A stretch of DNA of 64,000 nucleotides from a virus, in IMG/VR virus record IMGVR_UViG_3300027769_001114, positions 1-64,000 of that record; one strand, 5' to 3'. Each line of letters opens with the position of its first letter. Position 1 is the stretch's first letter. The notes beneath the pieces were generated by a model that did not search any database, was not told where the DNA came from, and was given only the letters and a program-made list of their open reading frames with translations. A program made the translations under genes and the position numbers. This document shows positions 412-55,162 of this stretch, in pieces.

Positions 412-424
412 GGGAGGTAATGGA

Positions 425-733
425 ATGAAAAAAGTCATGCGCCAAGTGGGTAGCAATACCCCAAAAAATGTCTTTGACCTCTCGCCAAAGGTTGAAGAAG
501 TCGTTGCTGAAGCACCTGCCACAGAAGGACCAACAGGGCCTTTTACGGATTTGTTTTCAGTTCAAAAGGGTTTTGCTGAGGAAGTCAAGGTTGAAGAGGC
601 CGAGGCACAACCCGTCGCAGAAGCAGTTGTAGTCGAGGAACACACCCACGACGAGAACTGCGATCACCCTGCGGAGGAACAGGCCCCCAAGCGTTCGCGC
701 AAGAAGCAGGCCGAACCTTCAGACGCAGAATAA
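425..733 (+). CDS. hypothetical acidic/disordered protein
   Basis: GGAGG SD before ATG 425; E/A/P-rich; coding-like codon usage. Confidence 0.7.
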   Translation: MKKVMRQVGSNTPKNVFDLSPKVEEVVAEAPATEGPTGPFTDLFSVQKGFAEEVKVEEAEAQPVAEAVVVEEHTHDENCDHPAEEQAPKRSRKKQAEPSDAE

Positions 734-742
734 CGGTCGGCG

Positions 743-2827
743 ATGGACGCCGACAGGCGCATCAACGCCAATCAACGTAGATCCACGCTGTTCTCCGAGA
801 CCAAGACCATTGCGGTCAGGTCGGAGGAAGATGCGATGCTTGCCGATGTTGGGTACGACGATGTCCTTAATGATGTCCCGAATATGTCCCGTTGGGACAT
901 GAAGGTTGCCATCATGTCAAGAGGCATGTCAACAAGGGCGGTTCAACTTTTTGAGTCGCAACTTGAGAAAGGTCTGCGACCCGGCATCGGAGCGGTAAAC
1001 GCCGTCAAGAAGGGTGTCGCTGTCGTTGATGAGATGGGCAAGTTGCGTTGCCCTCCCGGCACTGCAAATGCCATGGAGTTCACGGACACTCTCGGCTCTA
1101 ACTGTGGGATACCTGGTTCAAGAGTCAAGCCAGAAGCGATTGGCGATGTGTCCAACATTGCTGGAGCGCAGAAGCTCCCTCGCATTGGTGATGCAGACAT
1201 TGCAAAGAACATAGTCAACGCCGCAACCCCCGCCATAGCCGTCAGGAGGGAGACGAAGACCTCGGGCAAGACGACCATGGACATTTCCAACTTTGACGAG
1301 GAGCAGGTCGGCAAGATGCTCTCGTTCCTCAAGGCCGCACCGGGCTTTGAGTGGATCGACCCCAAGAATCCCGAGCATGCACAGAAGGCGATCAACCAAC
1401 TGTCGGACAACCTCATGACCCTCATGGGTGAGACGACGGAGGAGCAACGCAAGAAATGGGCGCGTTGGTACGACATAGCGAACGAGTTTGACACCAGAAT
1501 CGCTAAAGAGATTGGCATTGACGTAATCACCATGCACGCCGTTACTGCGTCGTTGTCTCCGCAGAAAGACTGGGATCAGAACACGGCGATGGCCGAACAC
1601 CTCTCCCGCCTTCTCTCAGACAAGGAACACATCATGTCTGAGGAGACGGCGAAACAGGCCTACATCTACGCCTTGGGAGAATGGAACACTAGGCAAACCG
1701 GAGACAGGGGTTCTCATGCGAGTCGCATCAAGAGGATAGAGAAGGACATCGCCGACACCAGGGCGAAGATTTCTGAGAACGAAGGCAAGGACGGGAAGAA
1801 GGCCGCCAATGCCATTGCCTTCAACACGGCAAAACTTGAAACCCTTGAACAGAAGTTATTGCTTGCCAAGAAGGACATGTCCGACGATATTGAGCCAACC
1901 ATGGAGGACTTCCTCGGTAAGAACATCTCGGAGATGGATGTATTCAACGCCGCCGCATCCATCAGGGCGCACAGTGAGATTGAGGGCGGGACATATCTAG
2001 GTATGCCCGAGTCTGAACTCAGTAAGAGTGACATCAAGGAGGGCAAGTCCAAGAACAGACTTCTCTCATACAAAACGATATTTGGCAAGGGTGATCCCGG
2101 CGACCACGAGGTTGAGCCGAACCCCGGGTCTGCTGTTGCTGCAACTTCTTTCGGCACATACATGACCGCTATCAAGCTGTTCCGTTCGGGTGGCGACATG
2201 GACATCATTGACGCAGAACTGAACGGCACCAAGGTCAGGTCGTTCTTCAACAACATCGCTTTCCCAAACGACACCACCCACAAGGACGTCACCATCGACA
2301 CCCACGCTGTGGCAGGCAACCTAATGGTTCCCGTAGCGGCAGATCACTTGATTACATCATCGTTAGCCTTTACGCACGTGCAGTCAACCGGTACGGCGCG
2401 GGCGTATCCGCTCCTCAGGCAGGCCATGGTTCTGACCGCCGAGAGGTGGAAGGGCGAGACGGGAGAGGACTACCTGCCGAGGCAGATTCAGTCTATTACT
2501 TGGGAGAGAATGAGGGAACTCGTTCCCGACACCGCCAAGAAGTACCTCACCGACAGGATGGCTCAGATACAGAGGCTGGCGCACGGCCCTAACGCCGACG
2601 AACGTTTTGTGGGGGAAAAGGGCTTTGCGGCGGCGCAGAAACTCATTGACGCGGCGATGATCAGCCTGGAAGAAATCAACAAAGGCAAGAAGAAGGCAGA
2701 ACAAACATCGCGTACACAACTCATGGAAGACGCCATCAAGGAGATTGGACTACCCGACATGGGTCCCGAGGATCTTCTCCCAAGAGCCAAGAAGAAAGAC
2801 GCCGAGAAGGTCGTTGCTGAAAGTTGA
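743..2827 (+). CDS. 694-aa head-region polyvalent protein with an RCPPG motif and a C-terminal HhH-GPD/DNA-glycosylase-like helical domain
   Basis: Motifs RWY...ASLSPQKDWDQN, KVRSFFNNI, DVTIDTHA, RQIQSITW; long ORF. Confidence 0.6.
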   Translation: MDADRRINANQRRSTLFSETKTIAVRSEEDAMLADVGYDDVLNDVPNMSRWDMKVAIMSRGMSTRAVQLFESQLEKGLRPGIGAVNAVKKGVAVVDEMGKLRCPPGTANAMEFTDTLGSNCGIPGSRVKPEAIGDVSNIAGAQKLPRIGDADIAKNIVNAATPAIAVRRETKTSGKTTMDISNFDEEQVGKMLSFLKAAPGFEWIDPKNPEHAQKAINQLSDNLMTLMGETTEEQRKKWARWYDIANEFDTRIAKEIGIDVITMHAVTASLSPQKDWDQNTAMAEHLSRLLSDKEHIMSEETAKQAYIYALGEWNTRQTGDRGSHASRIKRIEKDIADTRAKISENEGKDGKKAANAIAFNTAKLETLEQKLLLAKKDMSDDIEPTMEDFLGKNISEMDVFNAAASIRAHSEIEGGTYLGMPESELSKSDIKEGKSKNRLLSYKTIFGKGDPGDHEVEPNPGSAVAATSFGTYMTAIKLFRSGGDMDIIDAELNGTKVRSFFNNIAFPNDTTHKDVTIDTHAVAGNLMVPVAADHLITSSLAFTHVQSTGTARAYPLLRQAMVLTAERWKGETGEDYLPRQIQSITWERMRELVPDTAKKYLTDRMAQIQRLAHGPNADERFVGEKGFAAAQKLIDAAMISLEEINKGKKKAEQTSRTQLMEDAIKEIGLPDMGPEDLLPRAKKKDAEKVVAES

Positions 2828-2852
2828 CAGGCAATACTTGTTCATGTATCAT
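2824..2852 (+). promoter_or_regulatory. sigma70/SigA-type promoter for the 79-aa gene
   Basis: TTGACA (2824-2829), 17 nt, TATCAT (2847-2852); the -35 overlaps the upstream stop codon. Confidence 0.75.
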
Positions 2853-2878
2853 TTACAAGAAGAAACAAGGAGGAAAGT

Positions 2879-3118
2879 ATGAATAAGAAAAAAGAACCAC
2901 GATTACTAGAAATATCAGGCGATACGGCCGGAACCGGCATCGAGTCATTGTCGCTAGGCGATGAGGAACTCTTGAAGGTTATTTCAAGCGACTCGTTCCT
3001 AAAGCAGCTCCGCAAGGGAATGAAGGGTTTCTCGGAGGAGGAGATCAACAAGGCACTCCTGCGAGCAAAGTACTCGTTGTCACCACAGTCGGAAGACGAC
3101 GAAGAAGAAGAAGACTGA
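2879..3118 (+). CDS. small acidic-tailed protein, candidate immunity/partner of 743..2827
   Basis: AAGGAGG SD, own promoter, C-terminal EDDEEEED. Confidence 0.7.
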   Translation: MNKKKEPRLLEISGDTAGTGIESLSLGDEELLKVISSDSFLKQLRKGMKGFSEEEINKALLRAKYSLSPQSEDDEEEED

Positions 3119-3137
3119 AGGGTCTAGGATACGCAAC

Positions 3138-5315
3138 ATGCGTATAAAAGCCACACGGCCCGACCCCTTTGCGGTGATCGCATCATCCGTCAAGACGGCG
3201 GCGGCCTTCTCGTCCCCAAAGTCTGCCAAGGGCGACTGCGGGTGCGGATGTAGTGACTCCGTCTCAGGGGACATCGCCCCCGTGTCGTCTACAAAATCCA
3301 GGAGGGTCGATGCCGACCGACAGAGGGTCTCCGACCTCTCTTCGCACCTTGGTCTCATCGGGGGCAGGCGCAACATTGTTGACCTCAAGGTTGCGGCCAG
3401 GATTGCCGACGAAGGTTCAGGAAAAACTCCCGTTCACGATCCCAACGCTTATGTCGTGGGTCTTCCGTCAAGGTTTATTCAACAAAAAGCCGGCCTCGTT
3501 CGTTCCAATAGTCGTATTGGTAGGGCGGCGCAGGCTGTTGGCTCTGCCATCGTCCCCGGAGATATGTCGAGGGTGAGAAGTCCGATTAGGTCAACCATAT
3601 CTAGAGCCCTCACCCCAGGTGGTGGAGGTGGGTTGCCCGGCAGGATCGGCGGACAGCGGGTCGTTACTAGGTGTCCACCGGGATATGAACACGGCGGAAG
3701 GTTTTCTAATCGCACATTCACAAACTGCGGTATGCAGTTGTTTGAGGCAATCATCATGGCCGCCGAGGCGGCGACAGGCGACGGCGGTAATGGCGGCAAG
3801 CTTGGAATAGCCGGAACTCCAGCACCCTCAATCTTGAGGGGTGTTCGGGTAACGGCTGGCAAGTACACGGGCGAAGCCATAAATATCGCAAGGGCAGCAG
3901 ATGTGCCGCGCATGGCAAAGCCATCAGCAAAGAATAGAGATCAAGCGATTGCGAGTGTTGTCGGTGCGGCAAGTTCAGCCGAAGGCCCGTTCATTAGAAT
4001 GGTGAGGGCTGATGGAGTGACATTCTCTCCCGTTAGTGACATCGCAAGAATCGCTAAGCAGAGAAATAACCCCGACATGAAGGGAGCGACGTGGGTAACT
4101 GCGCTCAACTCTCCGAAGTCCATCGGCGGGCAGGAGTTAGCATTATTTGGTGCGGGCATCACGAGTATTAGGTATGCCGTTCCTGGTTCGGGTGAGATCA
4201 GGCTTGACGCAACCAAACCGATTGGACAAGCACGAGCAAGTGCTCTCATGAGGAAACTCACAACAGCCAGAAGAAAGACGGACGAGAACGGTTCCGCACT
4301 CAGGGAAATGGTCAGGCAATCGGCCGGCGACCTCGTCTATTCCGAGTCGTTCCCCAACATCGACAAGCCCAACGAACTCGTGGTCATCGCCAAGGGCAAG
4401 GAGAGGATGACTATGCCGAGGTGGGTCTACGAGGCCTGGTACTCGGACAAGTCCTCGGGTAAGGACAAGTCTTCTGGCTGGACCGTAGTTGACACCGTTG
4501 TGAACTCATCGTCGCAAGAAGCGATTGGCAAGGACATCAAAGCCGAAGCAACCGCTGAGTCACTTGCTGCACTGCCATCATTTGAGAGGGGCAAGGCTCT
4601 CGCTCTTGGTAAGTCAACCGATATTGGGATAGGCAGGACATCTGTAGCGATGAACGACGGCACTACCTGGATCGTTCACGGAGAGAACGCAGACTCGCAC
4701 ATAGGCATCGTCGTAGGTAACGACATTGCCAAGAGTCTCGGCATACACGCCCCGGACTCCTATTTGTTCGGCGAGAGCAATGCTCGCAGGGCGGTCGTTG
4801 AGTCGCCCGGGGAAATGACAGGGGTCAAGATGTCAAAAGATGATGTCATCTCGGACATTCCTGGTGAGCAACTTGCAAGGATTGCCATCGTTGACTACCT
4901 CACAAATAATCAGGGAAGGACGCCAGCTACGGTCGTCCCCGCCAAGGGCAAGGGAAGCAATGTCATCTCCATGTCCTCAGGGAGAAACGTTCTTTCTGGT
5001 GTTGGTGGGGCAAAAAAGCCTTCACAAAACGACTTCTCTTCCTACCTCAAGCAGGATGGTTCAAGCAAGTGGCTGATTGAGAAAGTCGCCGCCATGGAGA
5101 AGGTCAAGGAAAAAGTTGCCGCTATGTACGAACAAATGCTTCAACAAGCAGAACAGTTCGACTGGGACGCATATATTGACAGGCTCGCCATTGCTGGAAT
5201 CACCGAGGGGGAGAAAACTCACCTCGGCACAATGAAGGATCTCTACGCAATAAGGGTGAAACAGATGAGGTCATCAAGGAAGTCATTCCTTTCAGTTCTT
5301 GGCGTGATGTCATGA
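3138..5315 (+). CDS. 725-aa head-region protein with an RCPPG motif and a C-terminal degenerate HipA/PI3-4K-like pseudokinase
   Basis: IVVGNDIAKSLGIHAP...LARIAIVDYLTNNQGRTPATVV resembles the kinase D-x4-N-x-DR-x3-N region with the catalytic residues lost. Confidence 0.55.
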   Translation: MRIKATRPDPFAVIASSVKTAAAFSSPKSAKGDCGCGCSDSVSGDIAPVSSTKSRRVDADRQRVSDLSSHLGLIGGRRNIVDLKVAARIADEGSGKTPVHDPNAYVVGLPSRFIQQKAGLVRSNSRIGRAAQAVGSAIVPGDMSRVRSPIRSTISRALTPGGGGGLPGRIGGQRVVTRCPPGYEHGGRFSNRTFTNCGMQLFEAIIMAAEAATGDGGNGGKLGIAGTPAPSILRGVRVTAGKYTGEAINIARAADVPRMAKPSAKNRDQAIASVVGAASSAEGPFIRMVRADGVTFSPVSDIARIAKQRNNPDMKGATWVTALNSPKSIGGQELALFGAGITSIRYAVPGSGEIRLDATKPIGQARASALMRKLTTARRKTDENGSALREMVRQSAGDLVYSESFPNIDKPNELVVIAKGKERMTMPRWVYEAWYSDKSSGKDKSSGWTVVDTVVNSSSQEAIGKDIKAEATAESLAALPSFERGKALALGKSTDIGIGRTSVAMNDGTTWIVHGENADSHIGIVVGNDIAKSLGIHAPDSYLFGESNARRAVVESPGEMTGVKMSKDDVISDIPGEQLARIAIVDYLTNNQGRTPATVVPAKGKGSNVISMSSGRNVLSGVGGAKKPSQNDFSSYLKQDGSSKWLIEKVAAMEKVKEKVAAMYEQMLQQAEQFDWDAYIDRLAIAGITEGEKTHLGTMKDLYAIRVKQMRSSRKSFLSVLGVMS

Positions 5316-5593
5316 ACAAGGTGGCTTTCGTCAAGAATATAGATAGTGGAAAGTTCGCAGTTCTCGTTGAGACTGACGGTGGTGTGGACGCCATCGGAAC
5401 TTCACCCCATGGCAAGGAATGGTCGTCGTGGGTTGATGCACTCCCCCTTAGGGAACGCAGGAGGATTGAAGACATCCTCTGGTCACTCTCTGAAGCGCAG
5501 ACCGTAGACGGCCCAAGGACACCGACCAGGTTGGAAAGGGCGGAAATCACCGCACTTCTCAATGGCGAAAAGACAACTGAGGCTATTGCTTGA
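5312..5593 (+). CDS. small hypothetical protein coupled to the upstream gene
   Basis: ATGA start/stop overlap at 5312-5315. Confidence 0.7.
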   Translation: MNKVAFVKNIDSGKFAVLVETDGGVDAIGTSPHGKEWSSWVDALPLRERRRIEDILWSLSEAQTVDGPRTPTRLERAEITALLNGEKTTEAIA

Positions 5594-5661
5594 TCCAGTA
5601 GTACACCCTACGGTGGTAGTGTTTCTTCGTCAAGTAACTGCGTCCAGAACACAGCGGGGTC

Positions 5662-8600
5662 ATGCAAAAATCACGGGTAGAGTTCTCCGTCCTTACGCGT
5701 AAGGCCGCAATAGATGCTTCCTCCGTCGCCCTCGGCGTACGGATGGCCAGCCGTCTCTCGACGGGTAGAACTACTGCGTTTTCGCACAGCACCAAAGGTG
5801 TTCCATTCGTACAGACCGAACAGATTCAGTACGAGTTCCGTCAACCCAATGACAGAGTTCACTACGCACGACTTGAGGGTTTGACTAAGTCAGCCAACGA
5901 TCAGGCGATCAAGGCAAAGAGTCTCTCCCTGTCATCTGGCCCGGATATCATCCTGTGGCCAGAACAAGACGGTTCGTTTGACTTCAAGAAACTCGCTTCC
6001 ATCGGAAAACGTGGACGCGCCGCGGCGCAAGGGTACGACCCAGACGCAGACGATGCCGACGGCGACATGCTCGTTCAAGATGGCACGCCGTGGGAACGCC
6101 CCAAGACACCAAAGATTTCCAAGAGAGGTCAGAGGAAGCCCGGCAAGACTCGTGTTGCCGTCGCCTCTGGTCTAGAGAATGTTGCCGACAGGGTTGATCA
6201 AGCCGCGTCCAAACGTAGGTCTCGTAGGCAAGAACGCGGCCCGTTGAAGGAACGCATTGCGGGCAGGCTTGAGGGCGCTGCCGAACGGATTGACAAGAGG
6301 CGTTCGGGCAAGCCCGGCAAGCCCGATGGCGAACCACTAGAAAAGCCAAAGCGCAGTAGGGCAGGTCTTAGGGAGAGGTTCGGTGACTATGTCCTGGGCG
6401 ACCAACGCGAGAAACCGTCCAAGGACAAGCCAAGTAAAGAACCGGATACAACCCCCGACACGGCACCTGATGCCGAGCCAGATCTAGAACTTGAAGATTT
6501 TGCTCCACCGGATCCCAGCACGGCAAAACCCAAGACCCCCGTTGAGGACATCACCGCAACCGCAACCGCAACAGAAAAACTCCCCGGCAAAGTCATTGGC
6601 AAGCCTGAGGATGATAGGGCGTTTGCTATGGTCGCAGCCCGCAACTCTTCGTTGGCTAAGCCCAACCTTAAGGAAGGCGACGACAACAAACCGCAGAACC
6701 TTCATGTCGTAAAGAACGATGAAGGCAAGTTCGTCGTCGTTGACGACGAGAGGTTGAAGGCGATGGAGGGCGTAACGCCAGTCGCAACATTCAACGACGG
6801 TAAAGTTACGTCACTTGATGGCGAGCAGAAAAAGGCCAATAACAAGAAGGCATCAAACGAAAAGATTGACACTGCGCCGGGATGGGGACGTCAGGAGACC
6901 AATCGCAGTAGTGCCGAGGACAGTATCTCCAACATTGACAACACCTCCTACTATGGTCCGGCCGGCGCAAAGGGAGGAAGTAAAAAGTTTCAAGATGGCG
7001 AAGCGGCTCACCTTATTGAGTCGTCCGACGGTAAGTACTACCTGGTCGACGAAGAGAAACTACAGGCACTCGGCGTTGAGCCGATCAAGTCGTACAGAGC
7101 GGGCGAGGGTGAGTTCGTCTACGCCTCCGAGAAGCCGCCGAAAGTAACTCCGAGCAAGCCGAAGGAAGACATCGCCGTCGGCCAGATCCCCGGCGAAGGC
7201 CCGATGGAGAAGCCGTCGTTACCCGATGTTTCCGCAGACGCAAAGAAGAAGAAGCCAAAGAAGTCAAAACTTGATGGCAAGCAGGACGGCAAGTATCAGA
7301 AAGAAATAACCGCCTACGTTCGAGCTAATAAGTTGTCCTCAGAGGACGGCAAGGACAGGTATGTCGTTGATGCCCCAGGCGGCGGTTACGCCATCGTTGA
7401 CAAGGAACGACTTGACGCAATGGGCGTTGAACCGTTGTCAACGCACTCAAAGGGCAAGGGCTCATCAAAACGCAATGCTCTAGAAGCCGATGCTCCCGAG
7501 GCAGAGAAACCGAAGAAGCCGTCCGTCACTACAACGCAACCACCAGAACCAGAAACCGAAAAGGATTCAGTCCCCGAATGGCTAAAGCCAAAACCAGAAG
7601 AACCAGAGCCAGAAAAGCCTGAGTTCCCCGCATGGCTGAAGCCCAAGGATCCAGAGGCGGAAAAGCCAGAAGTAGAAAAGCCAGAAGCCCCCGAGGCGAA
7701 GAAGCCAAAGGAAGTTGCCCCGGCCAAGAAACTCACGGCAAAGAAGACTCCGAAGCAGAGCATCCAGTATCTGAACCAAGAAGTTGACAAGGCGCAGAAA
7801 CTCTACGACGCTGGCGACAAGGAAGGCGCAACGGCGTACGCCAAGCAGTCAATGGCGAACATTGACGAGGCTCGCAAGGAGGGTCTACTCAGGGCGAACG
7901 AGTACACCGCTGAGTCATTCATGGCTCAGATTGACGAACTCCGTTGGCACGCCGACGGTCATCCGGGACTCGAAGACGACACGGAACCTGAAACCCCTGC
8001 AGCACTTGAGACACCGAAGGACCAAGTTCCGTCACAACTAAGTGCCAAGCCGTATAACGACTTGAACTCCCTCATTGAGAAGGCAAAGAAAGACAAGGAT
8101 CCAGGCAGTTTTGACGATGCTGATGCGCTCGTCAACGAAATGATCAAGGTACGTGCGAAAGAACTAATGAAGTCTGGGTTGTGGCCCAAGGATTACGGCA
8201 ACGACTCAATATACGCGGGTCTCACAAAACAACGAGACGACATTGCGAGCCTCAGGGAAGAGGTCGCATCTGCCGCTGGTTACGGCACGACTAAGCCTGA
8301 GGCGAAGAAGCCAAAGAAGCCAGCAAAGATCACGCCTGGGATGAACCTTTCTGGTCTTGACCTGACTGAGTACGTGCTCAACGACGGTGGCATTGAACTC
8401 AAGGGCAGAGACCTGTCCAACACGAACTTGTCTGGCCTTGATCTCAGCAATATGAACATGACCGGGGCAAACCTCAGGGGTGCGAACCTGACTAATACCA
8501 GCCTTGAGGGCGTTGACCTTACTGACGCTGATTTGACCGGAGCCGTACTTGACGGCGCGGCCATGAGGAACGCTGAACTGGGGGGTGCAAACTTTGCGGG

Positions 8601-14600: not shown

Positions 14601-15243
14601 TGAGCAGGTGATGAGTGGTAGTGGACTCAGTGGAGGCGCAGCCCAAGGCTCGGGTGGGTACGGAGCGTCGCCGATGACTGACCTTATGTCTGGCGGTGGT
14701 GACGGACTATTCATGTCGGCCTTTGCTGGTGGCTCGGCAGGACTCGGCAGCGCAGGCGGTCAGCACATAAATGCAACATTCTGGGGAACTGGCAAGGACA
14801 CCTTTGTCGTCCTTGACGCAGAGCAACAGATGAGGGACATTGGTTGGTGGGCGCACGGACCTAACGACGGTCCCTACGGCGCACTTAACCCGACGAGTTC
14901 AAACGGCTTGACAGCAAAAAATATGGGGTCAACCGATCCGATCAGCCTCTTGGAGAACGGCAAGGTCTTTGAGTTCATGGGCAACGGAACTACGCCGATG
15001 GAACACATTTCGTTCGTCATCCTTCCGCCAGGACCAAGAATCCAGGCAATAGCAAAGTTGAAGGCGGACGGAATCACGGAGATCAACGGCAAACCAATCG
15101 AGGAGTTCATTGTCAGTTCCAAGGCCGGCTCCAAGGTGAGGGCAGCACTCGGACCCACATGGACGAAGAGCAAGTTCGGCTCTATCGCAACGCCAAAGAA
15201 AGCCTCGCCCGCAGAACTTGCCGCAGAAGGCACAACGGTCTAA
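5662..15243 (+). CDS. 3193-aa giant polyvalent protein (DADGD motif, novel repeats, pentapeptide repeats, HipA/PI3K-like kinase, C-terminal ART-like domain)
   Basis: Uninterrupted 9.6-kb ORF. A(D/N)Lxx repeats; FVIK..RELFG..YDRQGDN..PIDHGNAF kinase motifs; C-terminal ..LIKSGGQIS..DLMSGGGDGLF..FEFM..EINGKPIEEFI. Confidence 0.85.
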   Translation: MQKSRVEFSVLTRKAAIDASSVALGVRMASRLSTGRTTAFSHSTKGVPFVQTEQIQYEFRQPNDRVHYARLEGLTKSANDQAIKAKSLSLSSGPDIILWPEQDGSFDFKKLASIGKRGRAAAQGYDPDADDADGDMLVQDGTPWERPKTPKISKRGQRKPGKTRVAVASGLENVADRVDQAASKRRSRRQERGPLKERIAGRLEGAAERIDKRRSGKPGKPDGEPLEKPKRSRAGLRERFGDYVLGDQREKPSKDKPSKEPDTTPDTAPDAEPDLELEDFAPPDPSTAKPKTPVEDITATATATEKLPGKVIGKPEDDRAFAMVAARNSSLAKPNLKEGDDNKPQNLHVVKNDEGKFVVVDDERLKAMEGVTPVATFNDGKVTSLDGEQKKANNKKASNEKIDTAPGWGRQETNRSSAEDSISNIDNTSYYGPAGAKGGSKKFQDGEAAHLIESSDGKYYLVDEEKLQALGVEPIKSYRAGEGEFVYASEKPPKVTPSKPKEDIAVGQIPGEGPMEKPSLPDVSADAKKKKPKKSKLDGKQDGKYQKEITAYVRANKLSSEDGKDRYVVDAPGGGYAIVDKERLDAMGVEPLSTHSKGKGSSKRNALEADAPEAEKPKKPSVTTTQPPEPETEKDSVPEWLKPKPEEPEPEKPEFPAWLKPKDPEAEKPEVEKPEAPEAKKPKEVAPAKKLTAKKTPKQSIQYLNQEVDKAQKLYDAGDKEGATAYAKQSMANIDEARKEGLLRANEYTAESFMAQIDELRWHADGHPGLEDDTEPETPAALETPKDQVPSQLSAKPYNDLNSLIEKAKKDKDPGSFDDADALVNEMIKVRAKELMKSGLWPKDYGNDSIYAGLTKQRDDIASLREEVASAAGYGTTKPEAKKPKKPAKITPGMNLSGLDLTEYVLNDGGIELKGRDLSNTNLSGLDLSNMNMTGANLRGANLTNTSLEGVDLTDADLTGAVLDGAAMRNAELGGANFAGASLFGADLTSAHMPNANFEGADLRDTSMNGVVLLDANMTDANLMGADLSDAVMNRASLNGADLRNANLTSAALREADLSGASLNNADLPSADLRKANMSNTIMEGANLKNANLREADLESADMANVNLNGADLEGADLNSANLEGADLRDADLTNADLRQAQLESADLTGANTTGTKFDADFNAPDEEDEELFDYADLPDGEKWKSVGRAAYKQRIADLNSMTDTWFESVDDRAAIYDLGIERANEAIAERFQELSDAGLDNYEIGKDPVTNELVEISERLKAEKDAPPTNLVSNKPQSDAEKIVDESGNLVEGVSQGKAKNVLQALEAENDPSNDEAIAKLTNAAAKSEAENPTSITPSSPLPYKTSKVITDDSLKAAGVDPADATELIEPTLQLQKETLRNFISEELGISKRLGDEEMRAYLAEAYDNLGVISKIPEANKENAVLRAKVKTHLHNWDVLTGQGAYSESNSPGLTALDRFNHLSPNGQQSFLKELQGKYESDHPGDEAKVKELMDGFKKLTKPQGKKKMIPKETVEEFTANVEKEVAGPTPEPKPTKIDGPSMSIATIGNVAMLSPDEARSKGVPTLGAEDESKFPEGSIVGYLELPPGTTLRQAQQLAHDTTGEKNYLPKGYKKGDLELAEITAADGSTTAVVLNTRVDGFNDWDPEQVFPNAYGDDMPGELSNWGNSGQPLEDVTPDESSPLYGKKIISADSASINNTKPFGPGGPPKTMNENLIQAFGGKPWDSSEEALHDLLREKFGDDGGVVVMSPDGNFHAMSTKDWEDSFSKMTDSEKLGHDLVTKTPPKYVSWATSSKNDKHIDDIPWDELDSDAADEVLKTLFEEKQISELKELGFQTLGMFNVLNAQTEGQKQNVVEFFDQNTAAAEKDPEHSLNVNGDGEWGLFSVRAKGWSENGDPKQFAIALGGEDLKFALKHPTFFGQPLWTYSSMNSAGENVGEIDDAGMASEALRIAENPADMSFVANGNITGDRLASIVQEWENKLFKNAEYNPDHASKAMQDAEKRLADMNAILKDAIGDQDPKKMTIAELKKALASKTTSPDTFIGKMMETAVRLDVTKKFMATRMMAQQDALEIEQELKEMLDKNPKSIGDILKRDTQLKMEMQVASEDLSKAVAALESATTGNDIKEAYDQVNDAKARLRAAYATTKVYGDVTESHKKKFTTVFAGGEQYDLKKSSVISENAPTIEKASEIAAAIAPIMPSGTSVGIFKDDIGGYTLVKMDDAIQEGMPAPQAIFSSSGVGGIPVVDSTELMNLTTAPHMPKLAEGYQGTTNLGVNSVDGKAIGQFVPTPLSADSSPIDENHPLVKEWSQKIADGASLADVPNELLKESIWANTEGGGGGSGRFKLLSKASGFNDHGKGPKDQTQRFLDTTTGQTFVIKSATRNDQEGVRELFGNQVMQMLGFPSSGGRTAGVVDKSPNKFPSFHPEYDAEADQVPILIESSEMLYDGKPLGHIRNMPSAQQNDIIARLTPESVATGVVMDSLFRYYDRQGDNWIAVELPDGSVAYHPIDHGNAFGPFKGHKFYDKDGKKVSKGKDSPADEDELGFMFSGLDGEGAWKTAKQSMNTPERRQMFAEATINAVRRAESVDYAGEAEKLIQGQNLGGKLAGRARTSAQALEEKKGRLDSYVDPMLRELGMTDDEIAAVRAKVDAELGQGVMKASQAPKTLAPQAAAPKLYSPTPIEGEEAFGNAPAAGGKTVTLAIGQSLVDPSSIHYTTVGMSGGQTKEGVRFVAFPQTGEGKSPVVSMSTRLDFETSKSIGQALASGVDAQGNMVKILEMGSGHKAYQNSGGKWNIGPNGNPITEAASFDGKYVMAQMPDGAIVLVNYDTKETGDNYSSRGLTSVFYPDNKPDAAKVASTLSSLGVSDIGYVNDDGWKMRAAGMLARTFDKELLNSEDSMAVRLARVASEKGLTVNDLEPYHDSMGRLRFRLTDEGYKTLLEKHPKLAETTHFAKSMGTYTDGSNVVRLIKSGGQISKSEQVMSGSGLSGGAAQGSGGYGASPMTDLMSGGGDGLFMSAFAGGSAGLGSAGGQHINATFWGTGKDTFVVLDAEQQMRDIGWWAHGPNDGPYGALNPTSSNGLTAKNMGSTDPISLLENGKVFEFMGNGTTPMEHISFVILPPGPRIQAIAKLKADGITEINGKPIEEFIVSSKAGSKVRAALGPTWTKSKFGSIATPKKASPAELAAEGTTV
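8330..9150 (+). repeat. pentapeptide-repeat (right-handed beta-helix) coding block, roughly 50 units
   Basis: ANLRG ANLTN TSLEG VDLTD ADLTG ... ADLTG ANTTG, with 15-nt periodicity. Confidence 0.9.
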
Positions 15244-15269
15244 GTCATGGACGCGGGTAGGTTATTCAC

Positions 15270-15716
15270 ATGAAGACGAAGAAGACACTCAACTTCACCG
15301 AGATACTCAATCAGTATCAGTCTGTCGCCCCTGCACCGGCCGATGTCAGGCAGATGCCGGGCGACGAAGAGGACTCGACGGGTATCGTTGTTATGTGGGA
15401 CACCAATCACCCCATGGCTTCCTACTACCTTGATGACCCCTCAACAAAATATGTCATTCCATCTGCTGAGATCGTCGGCGACGACAATGATGCGTGGATA
15501 GAAGCCTCAATGCTGACGACAGGTGTATTCGCACCCATGAGACCTGCCTCCATTACAAAGACAAAAGAGGGTCTGATCTTATTCATGACCCTTGATCGGG
15601 CCGCCGACATAGCCGTAAGGCCGTTGACCGTAGAGGACTCACAGTGGGTGAAGGGCGGGCCTTCTAAGTCAATGCGGGAACTCATCAACTACATAGCCGA
15701 ACAGGACACATTGTGA
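15270..15716 (+). CDS. hypothetical protein, candidate immunity protein of the giant ORF
   Basis: TAGGTT box 6 nt before the ATG (leaderless layout); directly follows the giant ORF. Confidence 0.7.
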   Translation: MKTKKTLNFTEILNQYQSVAPAPADVRQMPGDEEDSTGIVVMWDTNHPMASYYLDDPSTKYVIPSAEIVGDDNDAWIEASMLTTGVFAPMRPASITKTKEGLILFMTLDRAADIAVRPLTVEDSQWVKGGPSKSMRELINYIAEQDTL

Positions 15717-16015
15717 CCGACTCCGCCGCCTATATCTACAGCAGGGACATTGACGCTGCCGACACGCCGATCGCACTCATCGTCTTGGAAAGTGGTGTCC
15801 TCAGGTTCTACGCACCCGAGGGTTCGCCGATGTCCAAAAAGGCTAAGTCGCTCACGGCAAACGCAATGCAACTTGATGCAGAAGAAGCACGGGACTACTT
15901 CGATACCTATGTTGACAGGTGGAATGGGCAGAGTATGCACGCCACGGTCGTCGCACTAACCGGCGCAAATGCTAGGAAGGTCGAAGCCACAAAGGCCAAG
16001 TGGAGGAAGGCATGA
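15713..16015 (+). CDS. hypothetical protein, second candidate immunity/partner
   Basis: GTGA overlap with the upstream gene and ATGA overlap with the downstream gene. Confidence 0.7.
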   Translation: MTDSAAYIYSRDIDAADTPIALIVLESGVLRFYAPEGSPMSKKAKSLTANAMQLDAEEARDYFDTYVDRWNGQSMHATVVALTGANARKVEATKAKWRKA

Positions 16016-19000
16016 GTGCCAAAGAGCCGTTGCGTGATCCAGACGGCGGGCTGACCGCGGCTGGACGTAGGCACTTCAGGGAGACCGAGGGCGCAAACCT
16101 CCGCCCCGGCGTGAGGGGAGCAGCCAACACGCCGACGAAGATGCGTCGCAAAGGTTCGTTCCTCACGAGGTTCTTTACCAACCCTTCAGGACCAATGGTC
16201 GACGACAACGGAAAACCCACACGCCTTGCTTTATCGGCAAGGGCATGGGGCGAACCTGTGCCAAAGAATATGGACGATGCCGCCAAACTCGCGGCCAAGG
16301 GACGACGTCTTCTTGAGAGGTACGCCAACGAGAAAGAGAAACAAGGCATCAAAGCCGCAAACGGCAAGAAGAAGAAGAACGCCACTAGGGAAGAGGCACT
16401 CGCCGTTGCGAAGATGATGGGTTGCGACACCGTGCATGAAGTTGATGGTGGCTGGATGCCGTGTTCATCCTCTGAAGAAATGCAACGCATATCAAAGTTA
16501 GCCGAGGACGACTCATGGCTCAATAAGCCAATCTCCGGCAAGGAGATGGTCTCAGCATCGGGCAGGAAGAGAAAACGAAGGGTGCGTCGATGGGAGAATC
16601 TTGCCCAACGTTCCTACGGAATGACGGGTGTTCCCGGTGTCGGTATCGTCTCTGCGTCACCGGCAAAACCAGTAGGCCCCATGGGTGACTCCTACGCTTC
16701 AGGACCGTCCGGTGTAATAACCCTCACCGCAGAGGGTAAGGGTCTACAGGCGTTCACCCCAGAGGTCGGCGATCCTGATGTATTCACCTCTCCCGACGCA
16801 GCAAGGATGCGTGCAAGGCAGGTTGGCTGTACCGGGATTAGGCGTTACACCACAAGGTCTGGTGTCAATGTCTGGATGCCATGCACGACCGGTGTCACTT
16901 TTGATAGGACGATGGGCTATGGCGCGTACTCAAGATCCGGCAGCAGGCTTGAGGCAGCGAGGATAGAACGCGAGGTGCGCAGGCAACTGCGTGTAGCGGG
17001 ACACCCGAACAAGAAGTCGGCAAAACGATTAGCGGCAACGCCAGCAAAACCATCGGAACGCGTCCGTGGTTCTTCGTCCAATGCGGAGGATTCTGCATCA
17101 TCCATTCGTAAGGCGTCCGATATTTCATTGTCGCCCGAGCAAGAAAAAGCCCTCGTGGTCAAGTCTCGCGAGCACAACGTTGCAATGAAAAAAGCCGGGA
17201 AACCAAAGTGGTCATACACATCATCGCCAGCCTTGAAGGCCGTGATGAGGCGAGGTATGGGAGCGTTCAGTTCGTCCCATCGACCCGATGTTTCGTCTCG
17301 TCAACAATGGGGCATGGGTAGGGTCAACGCCTTCCTTGTGATACTTGAAAAGGGCGCACCCAAGAACCGAAAGTACACGACCGACAACGACCTCCTTCCT
17401 GCGGGACACCCATGGAAGCGCACGGGGACAAGTGCCGCAAAGGCTGCTCAACCGGTGGACGCCGACCGCGACGGTTGGATTGACGAGGGCAAGCCAACGA
17501 GGCGTTTCGTTGGCATTAGTGCCGTCAGGGACGCAGTTCGTTCGGGTGTTGGTCGAGGAAGAGACATATTCGGTAGAGGCGGTTCCAGGAGGCAGGACAG
17601 GTCAATCCGAGTTTCTGCCGGTGAGGGCGCACTCGGCAGGGCCAGGTCACGAAGGATTGCTAGTGATATGCAATCTGCGGTAGAACAGATTGCTGATGGC
17701 GGCAAGGCACCCAAGAAAATCAAGCCAAAGAAGACAGCAAGTGTGCCTGAGAGAATCTCATCAGACAGACTCAGGAAACTCAAGCCTCAGAGGATCAACC
17801 ACTCGTCATTGGTGAATACGCAGAAGGCGTATCCTCACGCTCCAAAGATTGAGGGCGAGTTCTCTCCAAGGACAATGGACGAACTAGGACGCGCCAAGAA
17901 TGGCGGGATCAAGAGCACGTTTGACCACTTTGGGATTGGTTCGGGTGAAATCCCGGCAGAACGTAGAGCCCTACACGAGGCAATCATCAACTCAATCATC
18001 TACGGCAACGGCAAGTGGTCGCCAAAGAAACAAGAGAACCCCGCGGCATGGATTATGGGTGGCGGACCTGCCTCTGGGAAGACCTTCCTCAGGCAGGGCG
18101 GCTTCTTTGACACTCCATCACGAGGCGACGCCGTCCACCTAGACGCCGACGAGATCAAGCATATGATCCCCGAGTTTGACTCATTGGTCAAGGAGCTTAC
18201 TGATGCGGGCATGGACCCGACTCAGGCGGCCTCTGCGGTTCATTCCGAGTCAACATATATCCAGAGGCAAGCCATAGCAAGGGCTGCTTCTGAGGGCTTT
18301 CATGTCGTCGTTGACTCAACCGGAGATGGCGGCCCAAAGTCTTTCCATAGCAAGATTGACGCACTCCGAGCCGCCGGTTACAAAATGAAGGGGAGGTTTG
18401 CCGATGTCTCAATCGGCAAGGCACTCGCCGACGCAAAGGCTAGGCAAAAAGAAGAGAAACGTGGTGTCCCGGATGACATCCTCGTTGACACGCATATTGA
18501 CGTTGCCCGTGCCGTTTTGTACTCACTGGAGAACGGTCTGTTTGACGACTTTGAGCTCGTAAACAACGAGAACCACAACTCGCCGATCACTATCGCAGCT
18601 TTTAAGGACGGCGTACTAGCCGTTCACGACACCAAGAAGTGGTCGGAGTTCGTTGGTAAAGCAAGACTTGCCTTCAAGAACGATTACAAAGAGGACTACT
18701 TTGACGACATCAAGAAGGGTGCGGGCAGGACTCGCAACAAGGCCGAGAGGGCAACTGCGCGCAAGGTCAAGAGGAAAGAGGTTGAGGGCGTCGAGACCAT
18801 AACAGCAGAACCCGTTCGTTCGCTGGCCGAGGCACTCAAGGACTCAGGTATTGACTTTACTAAAGTGAAGGCAGTTCCCGCCGAGAAACGCGTAGAGATT
18901 GCTCAGGCATACAACGGATTGCCCGAGAGGTCTCCCGAGGCGAAGGAGGCATACGACGCCCTTCAGGCGGAGATTGAGGAACACTTCAGGATGCTGACCG

Positions 19001-19791
19001 ATGACTTTGGTGTCAAGGTTGAGTTCGTTGACAATGATCCGTATACGGACGGTGTTGAGATGATGGACGACATCGAGAACAACGGTGTCCTGAAAGTCCT
19101 CAAGACGGAGTCAACCGGGTCGCACCCTTACTGGTCGGACGAAATCAACGATATGTTCCGCGCTGTCCACGACGCTTTTGGACACGCCGCTACGGGCAGG
19201 GGCTTTGACAGGCATGGCGAGGAGGCGGCATATCAGGCCCACCGGTCCATGGTTAAGAACGTCCTGGCCCAACTTGCTCTTGCAACCGAGACGAGGGGAC
19301 AGAACGCAGCCTTGATTGAAGGGGGCGAGTTCCCTGTTCAGAAGGCTGCACTCCTTGACGAGATGCTTGCCAAGCAGGCGGCTTTGCCACCGATGCCAAG
19401 GATGGTCGTCCCACCAGATCCGCCGATTCAGACAGGCATGATTGACTCTGTGCCGGCCACCGCAGATCAAGACAATGTCTATGAGTCAACCAGGTGTCAT
19501 CATGTCTCGGGTGGTAGGAGGTTAGAGGGTCAAGACGAGGTTGTCCCCGTTGGTGGCCTGTACTCCGACATGAGTGATGACGTAAGGCTCTCGCCTGAGA
19601 CGAGGCAAAAGATCTATGTGGTTGCGGCTTCGGGAGCGGAGTCGCTTGACGACTCTGGACTTGACCCCGACAACAAGAGGATTGCCTCGTATTTCAAGTC
19701 TGTCAGGAAAGGCATTAGGTCACTCGGCAAGAACGATATGGCCGCGATCCCCAACTCGGCCGTTGAGTCATTCCCTGACTCCATTGAATGA
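16012..19791 (+). CDS. about 1260-aa polyvalent protein (DUF6321-like N-terminus, two GC...WMPC units, RRGMGAF..HRP..RVNAF domain, zeta-toxin-like P-loop kinase, HDAFGH zincin-like domain)
   Basis: DPDGGLTAAGR..RRKGSFLTRF; MGGGPASGKT/DADEIK/VHSES/VVDSTG; FRAVHDAFGH..GEEAAY..ETRGQN. ATG 16012 overlaps the upstream stop. Confidence 0.75.
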   Translation: MSAKEPLRDPDGGLTAAGRRHFRETEGANLRPGVRGAANTPTKMRRKGSFLTRFFTNPSGPMVDDNGKPTRLALSARAWGEPVPKNMDDAAKLAAKGRRLLERYANEKEKQGIKAANGKKKKNATREEALAVAKMMGCDTVHEVDGGWMPCSSSEEMQRISKLAEDDSWLNKPISGKEMVSASGRKRKRRVRRWENLAQRSYGMTGVPGVGIVSASPAKPVGPMGDSYASGPSGVITLTAEGKGLQAFTPEVGDPDVFTSPDAARMRARQVGCTGIRRYTTRSGVNVWMPCTTGVTFDRTMGYGAYSRSGSRLEAARIEREVRRQLRVAGHPNKKSAKRLAATPAKPSERVRGSSSNAEDSASSIRKASDISLSPEQEKALVVKSREHNVAMKKAGKPKWSYTSSPALKAVMRRGMGAFSSSHRPDVSSRQQWGMGRVNAFLVILEKGAPKNRKYTTDNDLLPAGHPWKRTGTSAAKAAQPVDADRDGWIDEGKPTRRFVGISAVRDAVRSGVGRGRDIFGRGGSRRQDRSIRVSAGEGALGRARSRRIASDMQSAVEQIADGGKAPKKIKPKKTASVPERISSDRLRKLKPQRINHSSLVNTQKAYPHAPKIEGEFSPRTMDELGRAKNGGIKSTFDHFGIGSGEIPAERRALHEAIINSIIYGNGKWSPKKQENPAAWIMGGGPASGKTFLRQGGFFDTPSRGDAVHLDADEIKHMIPEFDSLVKELTDAGMDPTQAASAVHSESTYIQRQAIARAASEGFHVVVDSTGDGGPKSFHSKIDALRAAGYKMKGRFADVSIGKALADAKARQKEEKRGVPDDILVDTHIDVARAVLYSLENGLFDDFELVNNENHNSPITIAAFKDGVLAVHDTKKWSEFVGKARLAFKNDYKEDYFDDIKKGAGRTRNKAERATARKVKRKEVEGVETITAEPVRSLAEALKDSGIDFTKVKAVPAEKRVEIAQAYNGLPERSPEAKEAYDALQAEIEEHFRMLTDDFGVKVEFVDNDPYTDGVEMMDDIENNGVLKVLKTESTGSHPYWSDEINDMFRAVHDAFGHAATGRGFDRHGEEAAYQAHRSMVKNVLAQLALATETRGQNAALIEGGEFPVQKAALLDEMLAKQAALPPMPRMVVPPDPPIQTGMIDSVPATADQDNVYESTRCHHVSGGRRLEGQDEVVPVGGLYSDMSDDVRLSPETRQKIYVVAASGAESLDDSGLDPDNKRIASYFKSVRKGIRSLGKNDMAAIPNSAVESFPDSIE

Positions 19792-19929: not shown

Positions 19930-21279
19930 ATGTCAGCAGACAAAGCACGCATCAGCGAACTGCAGAACGCACTTCGCAAAAAGATGGCGGACAACAAGAC
20001 CATCGCCGACTCATTCAAGGTCGAAGAAGGCACCGTCGTCGTTTCAACCGAGCAGAAGGCAGCCTTCGACTCAAACATGAGGGACATCAAGGAAATCAAG
20101 GGCCTCATCGAGGGTCTTGAATCCATGGATCAGGTCAACTCGTGGTCGTCAGAACCAGCAAGCGATTCAGTCGGAGCAGCAGCCGCTGCCGGCCAAATGG
20201 CTCGCTCGTCATACGGCGCCAAGAGCCTTGGTCAGTTGTTCCTTGACTCACCCGAGTTCAAGTCGCTTCAGGGCGGCAAGAACGGCGCAAACATGCCCAG
20301 CCCCTTCATTCTCAACAGCGGTGACATCACCAGCCAAGGTTGGGGTCAGAAGGACGTTTACAGCGGTTTGCTCGACACCACCGGCCTTTCATTCACTGGT
20401 TTTGGAACTCGTGAACGCGATGCCTTGGTCATCCCGCCAATGCGCACACGTCGCGTCCGCGACTTGTTCCCGGCACGCACAACCACCGCGGCAGTTATTG
20501 AATACTTCCGTCAGTTGGGCTTCACCACCCCAGGCACCACGGCGGTCAATGCCGCTGCGCCTGTGGCACAACGTAGTGGTGGCGCTTTCGCCGCAAAGCC
20601 ACAATCGTCCATGGTCTTCGAAGGTCATCAGGCTCCAGTTCGTACGCTCGCCCACTGGGAAGCTGCGCACAGGAACGTTTTGGCTGACGAACCGCAGTTG
20701 CGTTCAATCATCGACAACGAGCTCCTCTACGGTCTCCGCCTTCAGGAGGATTACCAAATCCTCAATGGTGACGGTACCGGCGAAAACTTGCTCGGTGTTC
20801 TTGAAACCCCTGGCGTTCAGGAATACGCATGGTCAGACGGCGCAACCACACCAGTTCCGGACACCAAGGCTGATGCGCTTCGTCGCGCCGCGACCTTGGC
20901 TTTCTTGGCCTACTACGAACCGACCGGCATCGTTCTTCACCCGAACGACTGGGAAGATCTCGAACTGACCAAGAACACCCAAGGCACCTACCTCATGGCA
21001 GTTTCCATGCAGGTCGGCTCCGAGGCAAGGGTCTGGCGCATGCCCGTCATCGACACACCGGCAATCGCAGAAGGAACCGCACTCGTTGGTGCCTTCGGAA
21101 CCGGTGCTCAGTTGTACGACCGCGAACAAGCGAACATCCGCATCAGCGAACAGCACGCAGACTTCTTCGTGCGCAATGCGATTGTGATCTTGGCCGAACA
21201 GCGTTTGGCTCTCGCAGTCAAGCGTCCGGAATCGTTCGTCAAGGTTTCCTTTGACAATGAGCCGGCGGAAGCACCCTGA
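19930..21279 (+). CDS. major capsid protein, HK97 fold, with N-terminal delta/scaffold domain
   Basis: LADEPQLRSIIDNELLYGL..QILNGDGTGENLLG; IVLHPNDW; FVRNAIVILAEQRLALAVKRPESF; strong SD and highly biased codons. Confidence 0.95.
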   Translation: MSADKARISELQNALRKKMADNKTIADSFKVEEGTVVVSTEQKAAFDSNMRDIKEIKGLIEGLESMDQVNSWSSEPASDSVGAAAAAGQMARSSYGAKSLGQLFLDSPEFKSLQGGKNGANMPSPFILNSGDITSQGWGQKDVYSGLLDTTGLSFTGFGTRERDALVIPPMRTRRVRDLFPARTTTAAVIEYFRQLGFTTPGTTAVNAAAPVAQRSGGAFAAKPQSSMVFEGHQAPVRTLAHWEAAHRNVLADEPQLRSIIDNELLYGLRLQEDYQILNGDGTGENLLGVLETPGVQEYAWSDGATTPVPDTKADALRRAATLAFLAYYEPTGIVLHPNDWEDLELTKNTQGTYLMAVSMQVGSEARVWRMPVIDTPAIAEGTALVGAFGTGAQLYDREQANIRISEQHADFFVRNAIVILAEQRLALAVKRPESFVKVSFDNEPAEAP

Positions 21280-55160: not shown

Positions 55161-55162
55161 TC

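Follow-up and report, generated by a model that had tools for sequence, protein, structure and literature searches.

Between the prohead protease gene and the major capsid gene of an uncultured myovirus, recovered as IMG/VR record IMGVR_UViG_3300027769_001114, we found an island of approximately 24 kb, all on one strand, in which genes for very large proteins with several domains alternate with small genes. The stretch of DNA analysed, referred to below as the window, is the first 64 kb (64,000 nucleotides) of the single 130,481-bp contig of this virus, whose genome of about 130 kb includes a tail sheath gene. The island is conserved throughout a clade of related phages, as a constant core accompanied by genes that evolve as a mosaic. 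On balance, and with moderate confidence, we favour the reading that it encodes a variant of the polyvalent proteins, placed in the head module, packaged in the capsid and injected into the host. Packaging, processing and injection are suggested by three features of the sequences: the fusion of the first island protein to the protease, the position of the island between protease and capsid genes, and the occurrence of homologous domains elsewhere as fusions to MuF or portal proteins. An initial annotation of the window had noted four large co-directional open reading frames (ORFs) directly before the capsid gene, and all four, designated A to D here, are present on the + strand (Table 1). Its description of them as multi-enzyme proteins of the polyvalent type within the head module gains indirect support from the protease fusion and from their position between protease and capsid genes.

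Concerning the extent of the island, the array had been proposed to start at position 743. The genes within it were as described, but the start was not, and the array reaches back over the junction of the contig ends as far as a prohead protease fusion. The contig starts and finishes with an identical stretch of 135 bases, representing an assembly overlap, and the assembly is thus circular (or the genome permuted). When the contig end is read across without correction, 45 residues of gene X, which begins near the other end of the contig, appear in duplicate. Directly upstream across the junction lies a 1015-residue ORF with a HK97/S78 prohead protease domain at residues 2-185, which carries an extension of 830 residues. 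Gene X is the next gene. Its ortholog in a sister phage (L087:4115-5164) is 93% identical and contains a PepSY domain (E 5e-7), and gene X homologues come after the protease fusion in all five long relatives (G001-G005). As PepSY is a peptidase-propeptide-like family, control of the protease by gene X is conceivable. The ORF at 362-733 had no family in Pfam or PHROGs. The GC content is even across the window (51-58%), and the array does not stand out in composition. Among cultured phages, Gordonia phages of the genus Bendigovirus have the capsid proteins closest to that of this virus (approximately 47% identity), and a megablast search of the whole region against cultured phages gave no match at the nucleotide level.

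The same arrangement was found in relatives. A capsid-based scan of IMG/VR yielded 305 related stretches, of which 80 were kept. All five long relatives have the protease domain (68-75% identity) at the N-terminus of an open frame of 802-3967 residues (789-3963 residues when counted from the start codon). A distance of 16-35 kb separates the protease from the capsid gene downstream, with all intervening ORFs on the + strand. The islands of the relatives contain ORFs of up to 3963, 3490 and 3462 residues with ORFs of 65-130 residues interspersed, and the five complete genomes are 117-170 kb in size. The core of the clade consists of the protease, gene X, B (followed by a gene with an N-terminus resembling that of small gene b), a DUF3721 module before the capsid gene, DUF6321, and a further module that is located inside the protease fusion in the present phage and is a separate 214-residue gene elsewhere. 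A, a, C, c1 and c2 are variable. When the 27 largest of 103 non-redundant upstream ORFs of at least 300 residues from the relatives were scanned with Pfam, Zeta_toxin was found in ten, NUDIX in seven, DnaJ in three and helix-turn-helix (HTH) arrays in several; 16 had no family. Some relatives (loci L074, L032 and L012) combine NUDIX, sigma-70 region-4-like HTH arrays, DnaJ and a zeta kinase in one protein of about 3200 residues, encoded by ORFs of 3131-3209 residues directly before the capsid gene.

We then compared the window with the sister phage, which is one IMG/VR contig (loci L087 and L007). The synonymous divergence (dS) was 0.19 for the capsid gene and 0.52-1.06 for the island, and the ratio of nonsynonymous to synonymous divergence (dN/dS) was 0.07-0.12 throughout. 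The low dN/dS together with the raised dS indicates that the island is a recombining mosaic under purifying selection; the latter also indicates that the small genes b, c1 and c2 are real genes. Positive selection as the cause of the island's divergence was rejected, as dN/dS was 0.08-0.12 with raised dS. The mosaic is clearest at the position of A, the A slot. Identity to the sister protein falls beyond the N-terminal part of A (Table 1), and the sister carries an insert of 265 residues. In comparison with the A-slot proteins of G001-G004 (1713-3490 residues), only residues 67-139 of A are in common, and beyond this N-terminal module the remaining 600-3400 residues are unrelated or mosaic. 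The initial annotation had proposed a search for swapped C-termini behind a conserved N-terminal module, and this is what the A slot displays.

The domains of the four large proteins were examined individually. A had been regarded as glycosylase-like, which was not supported; DUF7178 (E 4e-17, Pfam) was its only family. A PDB search with A gave spurious rows of designed-PPR repeats and 0 passing stretches, while the ESM Atlas gave DUF7178 clusters only. Nine other viral proteins with DUF7178 that we examined are 526-3141 residues long, and the companion domains are LPD23 (two of the nine), LPD38 (one), Zeta_toxin (one), a cell-wall hydrolase and a putative metallopeptidase. Our literature search found no paper on DUF7178.

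Homologues of B are present in 51 of the 80 related loci, and share 22-29% identity in an alignment of 18 sequences. In an AlphaFold (AF2) model, a single model based on this shallow alignment, residues 1-254 have a predicted local distance difference test score (pLDDT) below 50, residues 255-440 form a confident alpha/beta domain, and residues 475-725 form the C-terminal domain. With VIA-align, this last domain matched CtkA (Z 13.8, root-mean-square deviation (rmsd) 4.1 over 209 residues), CotH (13.3), PI4KII-alpha (12.6) and HipA (11.9). Foldseek pointed to PI3K-gamma (E 7.5e-4) and CtkA (E 9.3e-4). A comparison with the kinase family of C using hhalign gave a probability of 97.6% (E 2.6e-12). 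The relation is visible only by profile-profile comparison; in BLASTP, B and the C-terminal third of C did not match. In the B family, N.TSG replaces DHG, and the metal-binding Asp and catalytic-loop Asn are not conserved; B of the present phage additionally lacks D590 and R592 of the family. As the catalytic residues are absent from a kinase fold, B is a pseudokinase, in agreement with what the initial annotation had proposed. B had no family match in Pfam and nothing usable in PDB sequence and profile searches. The ESM Atlas led, below 0.9, to PI3K/PI4K and LepB_N clusters, which were used as leads only.

C consists of three unrelated domains. A pentapeptide-repeat region of about 270 residues, which the initial annotation had missed, scored 185 bits against a cut-off of 20.2, and was matched by pentapeptide proteins in PDB down to E 3e-31. 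The NCBIfam models for HetL, Qnr and MfpA all scored far below their cut-offs, and the region thus belongs to none of these families. The second domain is an atypical kinase. Its K, E, DR...N and IDHG motifs are invariant in all eight sequences, and from these intact catalytic motifs the kinase is active-looking. CtkA was the best sensible match in a PDB profile search (E 0.0055), and among 26 homologues, sub-threshold matches to PI3_PI4_kinase and HipA_2 were found in four and two, respectively. The third domain, at the C-terminus, was modelled with AF2 (a single model from 12 sequences) and resembles an ADP-ribosyltransferase (ART). VIA-align gave E. coli DarT1 with Z 9.4 (rmsd 3.3, 159 residues) and other DarT chains with 8.5, 7.6 and 7.5, followed by the ART-fold proteins Tpt1 (6.0) and SopF (5.3), and also OspC3 and pierisin. 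DarT rows were at the top of the Foldseek results as well, with weak E values of 0.14-0.19. Candidate catalytic positions by alignment are a His (7 of 9 sequences), an aromatic residue (10 of 11) and a Glu (11 of 12). PDB sequence and profile searches with this domain gave nothing usable. With moderate confidence, our results support the kinase and ART-like domains that had been proposed for C. The combined kinase and ART-like module is rare, with 48 matches at E<=0.001 among 1.84 billion representatives, and in one of these (P0046) the C-terminal domain lies behind a Phage_Mu_F domain. The size of C raised the idea of a virion RNA polymerase. No polymerase family was found in Pfam, PHROGs or NCBIfam, and the idea was set aside, on evidence that is weak given how far such polymerases diverge. 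By eye, three segments of about 30 residues in C (residues 345-592; 6694-7440) look alike, following the pattern hhVK.D.GKahVVD.ErL.AmGV.P; self-comparison of C gave no match outside the pentapeptide region.

D is a fusion, since its modules are separate genes in most relatives. DUF6321 usually has a gene to itself, located 1.6-3 kb further downstream than the capsid gene, and in G004 is fused to the protease, while the DUF3721 module is usually the gene directly before the capsid gene. The zeta domain (PF06414) scored 80.5 bits against a cut-off of 22.3 and matched the zeta toxin structure 1gvn (E 1.7e-8). Its Walker A motif GGGPA..K and the D.DE of its DxD motif are invariant in all six sequences. 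The initial annotation had seen in D a zeta kinase followed by an HDxxGH motif; both are confirmed, the latter as a real conserved domain. At E<=1e-5 the HDxxGH domain was found in 393 longer proteins. Among the 120 matches listed, its fusion partners are Zeta_toxin (23 proteins), Phage_Mu_F (four), DUF7178 (two) and Phage_portal (one). It is 49% identical to part of gp205 of Rhodococcus phage E3, which bears the annotation 'structural protein' and in this way links the domain to the virion, and had no PDB sequence match.

We considered whether these proteins might be purely structural, serving in assembly as scaffold, core or inner-body proteins with enzyme-like domains that are exapted or inactive. 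The island does sit where scaffold genes are usually found, between protease and capsid genes, and contains long disordered, charged segments; B lacks catalytic residues, but the catalytic motifs of the zeta and C kinases are invariant. Conservation throughout the clade, as would suit structural parts, is seen for the B, X, DUF3721 and DUF6321 modules. The variable parts, in contrast, are exchanged between close relatives whose capsid protein remains 98% identical, and components that have to fit an unchanging shell do not usually behave in this way. Some of the tblastn matches of the DUF5824-like region of D are Roseobacter phage genes with a major capsid protein annotation. However, domains of the island are found elsewhere fused to MuF or portal proteins and in proteins bearing LPD domains. 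A purely structural role thus seems to us quite improbable.

A further explanation is that the proteins are late-expressed enzymes that are not packaged. They would work within the producing cell, with cell wall precursors, nucleotides or DNA as examples of possible targets, and their genes would simply happen to fall in the late operon. The zeta kinase, NUDIX, DnaJ and HTH domains could all work inside an infected cell. In addition, genes for a ribonucleotide reductase (RNR), DNA methylases and a protein resembling phosphoadenosine phosphosulfate (PAPS) reductase are interleaved with structural genes of this phage, so that gene order is not strictly modular. Nevertheless, in all six genomes the first protein of the island is fused to the prohead protease, an enzyme that works inside the procapsid, and the fusions of island domains to MuF or portal proteins elsewhere also speak against activity confined to the producing cell, as does the 'structural protein' annotation of the homologue in phage E3. 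Among the explanations weighed here, we rate this one as the least probable.

The initial annotation had ascribed to all four proteins a disordered N-terminal part with one short motif in common. Disorder was borne out for B, by the low pLDDT of residues 1-254, and for C, whose first 700 residues are enriched in disorder-promoting residues. A tag common to all four was not found; there are two motifs, each in a subset of the proteins. The RCPPG module, of the form RCPPG...(F/W)T(N/D)..G, is present in A and B, and the DxDxDG motif (FDPxAxDGDGDGxVQxGTxFERP type) in C, D and the protease fusion. The former occurs in every B homologue and in the giant protein of the A slot in each of six genomes. 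As the motif hidden Markov models (HMMs) were seeded from the same island proteins, the matches are partly so by construction: 13 island proteins of the six genomes for RCPPG, at residues 56-290, and seven island proteins for DxDxDG, including several in relatives. Neither motif was found in any of the 149 ORFs of the rest of the genome. RCP.GY..GGRF, C197 and G198 are invariant in all 18 B sequences. The N-terminus of B bears a CGCGC motif in addition to RCPPG. A CGCGC run after basic residues is common to the protease fusion (L003:16136-19183, residues 495-506) and B (residues 27-38, 3219-3254), with a score of 46 against a shuffled maximum of 39, and B homologues hold a CC pair there. A literature search found no paper on the DxDxDG motif in the context of phage capsids.

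As to the small genes, the initial annotation had stated that three of the large ORFs are followed by them, and this was confirmed for a, b and c1/c2 (79, 93, 148 and 100 residues). It had further proposed that the small proteins neutralise the large ones, i.e. an effector-immunity system in which the large proteins are injected toxins and a, b and c1/c2 are cognate immunity proteins in the producing cell. Several properties would suit such a system. The proteins encoded by a, b and c1 are acidic (isoelectric point (pI) 4.5-5.1), the small ORFs are under purifying selection, and divergence from the sister phage is greatest in gene a and in the C-terminal domain of A; at the position of a, the sister has an acidic ORF of 84 residues with no detectable similarity. 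In epsilon-zeta pairs the small gene precedes the zeta gene, the order also seen for c2 and D, where c2 overlaps the start of the zeta-bearing gene. Two of the small genes had been credited with promoter-like signals of their own. One such site stands before gene a, between positions 2824 and 2852, with 11 of 12 matches, and a Shine-Dalgarno-like aaggagga precedes the ATG of the gene; the second site (4882-4910), however, lies 400 nt inside B. In the region as a whole, 8 promoter-like sites were found against 7.3 expected in shuffles, giving no excess.

Other results disagree with immunity. The small proteins belong to no family in Pfam, PHROGs, NCBIfam or PADLOC, save for a sub-threshold DUF2024 signal (Pfam) in c2. 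Homologues of c1 and c2 were found in four close relatives only, against zeta domains in 10 of the 27 giant proteins. Iterative HMM searches with a, b and ORF 362-733 found no relatives in the 80 loci, most of which are too short upstream to show them. In MuF toxins, an ORF of less than 150 residues follows 89.4% of 191 genes, against 25.5% of 952 short MuF genes, according to the sections of Jamet et al. (2017; PMC5576092) that concern them; in the islands of the six genomes only 12 of the 30 large ORFs have a follower of this size (here A, B and C, but not D). The first 43 residues of b are 39% identical to the N-terminus of a 2459-residue protein that comes after B in G004 (E 5e-6), and a detached module is therefore a better account of b than an immunity gene. 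A pseudokinase such as B needs no immunity, though it has a partner gene, and a late operon of presumably lytic type has little need for immunity at all. Prediction of a complex between the D zeta domain and c2 gave no answer (score 0.00 against a mark of 0.32), which has no bearing either way. The possibility that b is a stand-alone copy of one of the segments of about 30 residues in C was rejected (best match E 3.3). The proposed neutralisation is thus not supported: we regard an effector-immunity system as distinctly unlikely, and the small proteins are no less likely to be assembly partners, chaperones or detached modules than immunity proteins.

We next compared the island with known systems. 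The internal proteins of T4, including the packaged ADP-ribosyltransferase Alt, and the inner-body proteins of phiKZ are targeted to the capsid, processed by a protease and ejected with the DNA. Their genes, like those of the island, lie beside the genes for head protease, scaffold and capsid. The island proteins showed no sequence similarity to them and are 700-3,900 residues in size, and the protease here is of the HK97/S78 type. Judging from the AF2 model, the best structural match of C residues ~2939-3177 is DarT, the ADP-ribosyltransferase toxin of DarTG that acts on single-stranded DNA. However, sequence identity is 8-12% with no match at the sequence level, the domain here is the C-terminal part of a 3193-residue phage protein, and a Pfam scan detected no DarG-like macrodomain gene nearby. 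The CtkA, CotH, PI4KII and HipA kinases share the fold of residues 475-725 of B (Z 11.9-13.8), and C has the corresponding Lys, Glu, DR...N and DHG. In contrast to those kinases, the family here is rare, its matches lie below Pfam thresholds, and the B branch lacks the catalytic residues.

The closest precedent is offered by the polyvalent proteins of phages and conjugative elements, which are giant polypeptides that join disparate enzymatic domains and have their genes amid those for virion and packaging functions, in the account given by the relevant passages of Iyer, Burroughs, Anand, de Souza and Aravind (2017; PMC5512222). These passages list zeta-like kinases, kinases and ARTs in the polyvalent repertoire, report zeta-like kinases also in MuF-fused proteins, and mention T4 Alt and IPI. 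Measured against this account, D and C each join at least two disparate activities amid virion and packaging genes, and DUF7178 co-occurs with LPD23 or LPD38 in 3 of the 9 proteins examined. There are also differences. The passages on assemblin-like peptidases fused to polyvalent proteins place the peptidase 'always' at the C-terminus, whereas the protease is N-terminal in all six genomes here. The kinases described there are truncated Ser/Thr/Tyr-type kinases, whereas those found here are a PI3K/PI4K/CtkA/HipA-like kinase and a pseudokinase paralog. Finally, we are dealing with a multi-gene island of 16-35 kb with a conserved core, and A to D gave no LPD match. Some of the island domains may already be named in the supplement of that survey, which was the only paper found in a literature search for a prohead protease linked to polyvalent proteins and capsid.

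MuF polymorphic toxins, as presented in the corresponding sections of Jamet et al. (2017; PMC5576092), have a conserved N-terminal part associated with the head, a variable C-terminal toxin-like domain and frequent small downstream ORFs. Similar features are seen here, and both the C-terminal domain of C and the HDxxGH domain have homologues that are fused to MuF. In contrast to MuF toxins, A to D are without MuF and do not follow the portal gene. MuF is instead found in the portal protein itself, 8 kb away on the other strand (Table 1). The portal gene is transcribed divergently from the large terminase gene at 29942-31285, both within 10 kb of the block. The term 'MuF-independent', which had been applied to the array, is doubtful, because the phage's own portal carries Phage_Mu_F and other phages have related domains joined to MuF or portal proteins.

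Returning to packaged polyvalent proteins as the preferred reading, we envisage that the island proteins would be made late and would be built into the procapsid as it assembles, being fused to the protease and core or associated with them, and by means of the short N-terminal modules (RCPPG and DxDxDG). The prohead protease may then cut them, and the proteins would exit the capsid along with the DNA and, at an early stage of infection, modify targets in the host. Should they be packaged, exchangeable cargo would take up as much as a quarter of the genome in this widespread clade of uncultured phages, and the clade would represent a natural system for the addressing, processing and ejection of very large proteins. 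It would also be a source of novel enzyme families that probably serve to take over the host or to counter its defences: a kinase paired with a pseudokinase, which is rare, a DarT-like fold carried by the phage in this conflict, and the HDxxGH domain, which is widespread but unnamed.

A number of results weigh against this reading. B and the C-terminal third of C are unmatched in 50,697 cultured phage records, A to D have no MuF domain or LPD-family match of their own in Pfam, and PADLOC matched 0 of 10 proteins. Proteins of about 3,000 residues would need unfolding or cutting to pass the tail, and no cleavage sites were identified. The motifs are short, and the resemblance of the RCPPG modules of A and B was not above shuffled controls in an ungapped 12-mer test. 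The Z score of 9.4 for the ART-like fold is little above the stated VIA-align background of 7-8, with a Foldseek E value of 0.14. Purifying selection with high dS fits recombination and gives no direct sign of an arms race. The one 'structural protein' label, that of E3 gp205, is a record annotation.

A bolder version, which we think unlikely, would regard the capsid as a programmable container. A protease-anchored polyprotein would be loaded by way of RCPPG and FDPxAxDGDGDGxVQxGTxFERP addresses, comparable to the cargo-loading peptides of encapsulins, and the enzymes would be cut and ejected, with cassettes recombining behind fixed addresses. The cargo would then comprise a kinase coupled to a DarT-like ADP-ribosyltransferase acting on DNA or protein, a zeta kinase, and a pentapeptide helix that mimics DNA.

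Table 1. Features of the protease-to-capsid island and neighbouring genes, with amino acid identity to the sister phage (positions in the window)
Feature	Position	Strand	Size, evidence or remark	Identity to sister
Protease fusion				80%
Gene X, 3' part	1..411	+	344 aa after removal of 135-bp overlap; conserved island gene directly after protease fusion	
Small ORF	362..733	+	123 aa from TTG, true start uncertain	61%
Protein A (A slot)	743..2827	+	694 aa; N-terminal RCPPG module conserved, C-terminal DUF7178 variable	N-terminal part (residues 1-156) 79%; C-terminal part (residues 173-694) 51%
RCPPG module of A, aa 91-132	1013..1138	+	Motif HMM domain E 1.5e-17; regex match	
Promoter-like site	2824..2852	+	TTGACA, 17-nt spacer, TATCAT; between A and a; 11/12 matches	
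Small gene a	2879..3118	+	79 aa; pI 4.6, acidic tail	Not detectable
Protein B	3138..5315	+	725 aa; conserved island core gene; disordered N-terminus, alpha/beta domain, C-terminal pseudokinase	84%
RCPPG module of B, aa 167-209	3636..3764	+	18-sequence alignment, motif HMM	
Pseudokinase domain of B, aa 475-725	4560..5312	+	VIA-align, Foldseek, hhalign	
Small gene b	5312..5593	+	93 aa; start overlaps stop of B	82%
Protein C	5662..15243	+	3193 aa; three unrelated domains	68-92%
DxDxDG-type motif of C, aa 123-150	6028..6111	+	Motif HMM E 3e-12	
Pentapeptide-repeat beta-helix of C, aa ~893-1165	8338..9156	+	Pfam Pentapeptide E 9e-56	
Atypical kinase domain of C, aa ~2290-2650	12529..13611	+	Catalytic motifs intact	92%
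ADP-ribosyltransferase-like fold of C, aa ~2939-3177	14476..15192	+	AF2 pLDDT 71.9, predicted template modelling score (pTM) 0.70	
Small gene c1	15270..15716	+	148 aa; pI 4.5; dN/dS 0.12	85%
Small gene c2	15713..16015	+	100 aa; overlaps start of D; dN/dS 0.10	82%
Protein D	16000..19791	+	1263 aa; five Pfam families	91%
DUF6321 domain of D, aa 12-83	16033..16248	+	Pfam	
DUF3721 motif of D, aa 128-157	16381..16470	+	Pfam; inside module aa 123-340	
DUF5824-like region of D, aa 393-464	17176..17391	+	22.9 bits vs cut-off 25, sub-threshold	
DxDxDG-type motif of D, aa 481-506	17440..17517	+	Motif HMM E 4e-12	
Zeta-toxin-like P-loop kinase domain of D, aa 676-858	18025..18573	+	Pfam E 1.5e-22	
HDxxGH domain of D, aa 951-1120	18850..19359	+	phrog_3170 E 4e-44	
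Major capsid protein	19930..21279	+	HK97 fold family; downstream island boundary; Phage_capsid E 8e-41	98-99%
Portal protein	27535..29724	-	C-terminal Phage_Mu_F domain, 39.4 bits vs cut-off 29.6	98-99%
RNR, methylase, terminase				98-99%

One named phage invites comparison. Actinomycetia phage DSL-LC01 (OQ999401.1) is likewise a metagenome-assembled phage, from freshwater, with a genome of 129 kb, a 3289-residue ORF and several small ORFs. It has three genes annotated as 'capsid maturation protease' between portal and capsid (L120, record 52800-62669), and its DUF5824-like segment is 50% identical to residues 375-489 of D. It differs in its portal-first gene order and its annotated major tail protein, with no other detectable similarity to the island proteins.

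Outside the island, ARAGORN found no tRNA gene in the 64-kb window. Directly after the capsid gene, and thus within the structural region, is a gene for a class II (B12-type) RNR (21763-23682, - strand) with RNR_Alpha, barrel and RNR-II insertion domains. The ORFs 24188-25534, 25464-26234 and 26304-27341, all on the + strand, include a C5 cytosine DNA methyltransferase gene that matches the Pfam model over its N-terminal half; another two ORFs of the 24188-27341 stretch matched the C-terminal parts of methyltransferase PHROGs, and the methylase between the capsid and portal genes may be split or composed of several parts. The PAPS-reductase-like gene (38037-39182, + strand; phrog_2302, E 9e-72) is located in the structural half of the genome.

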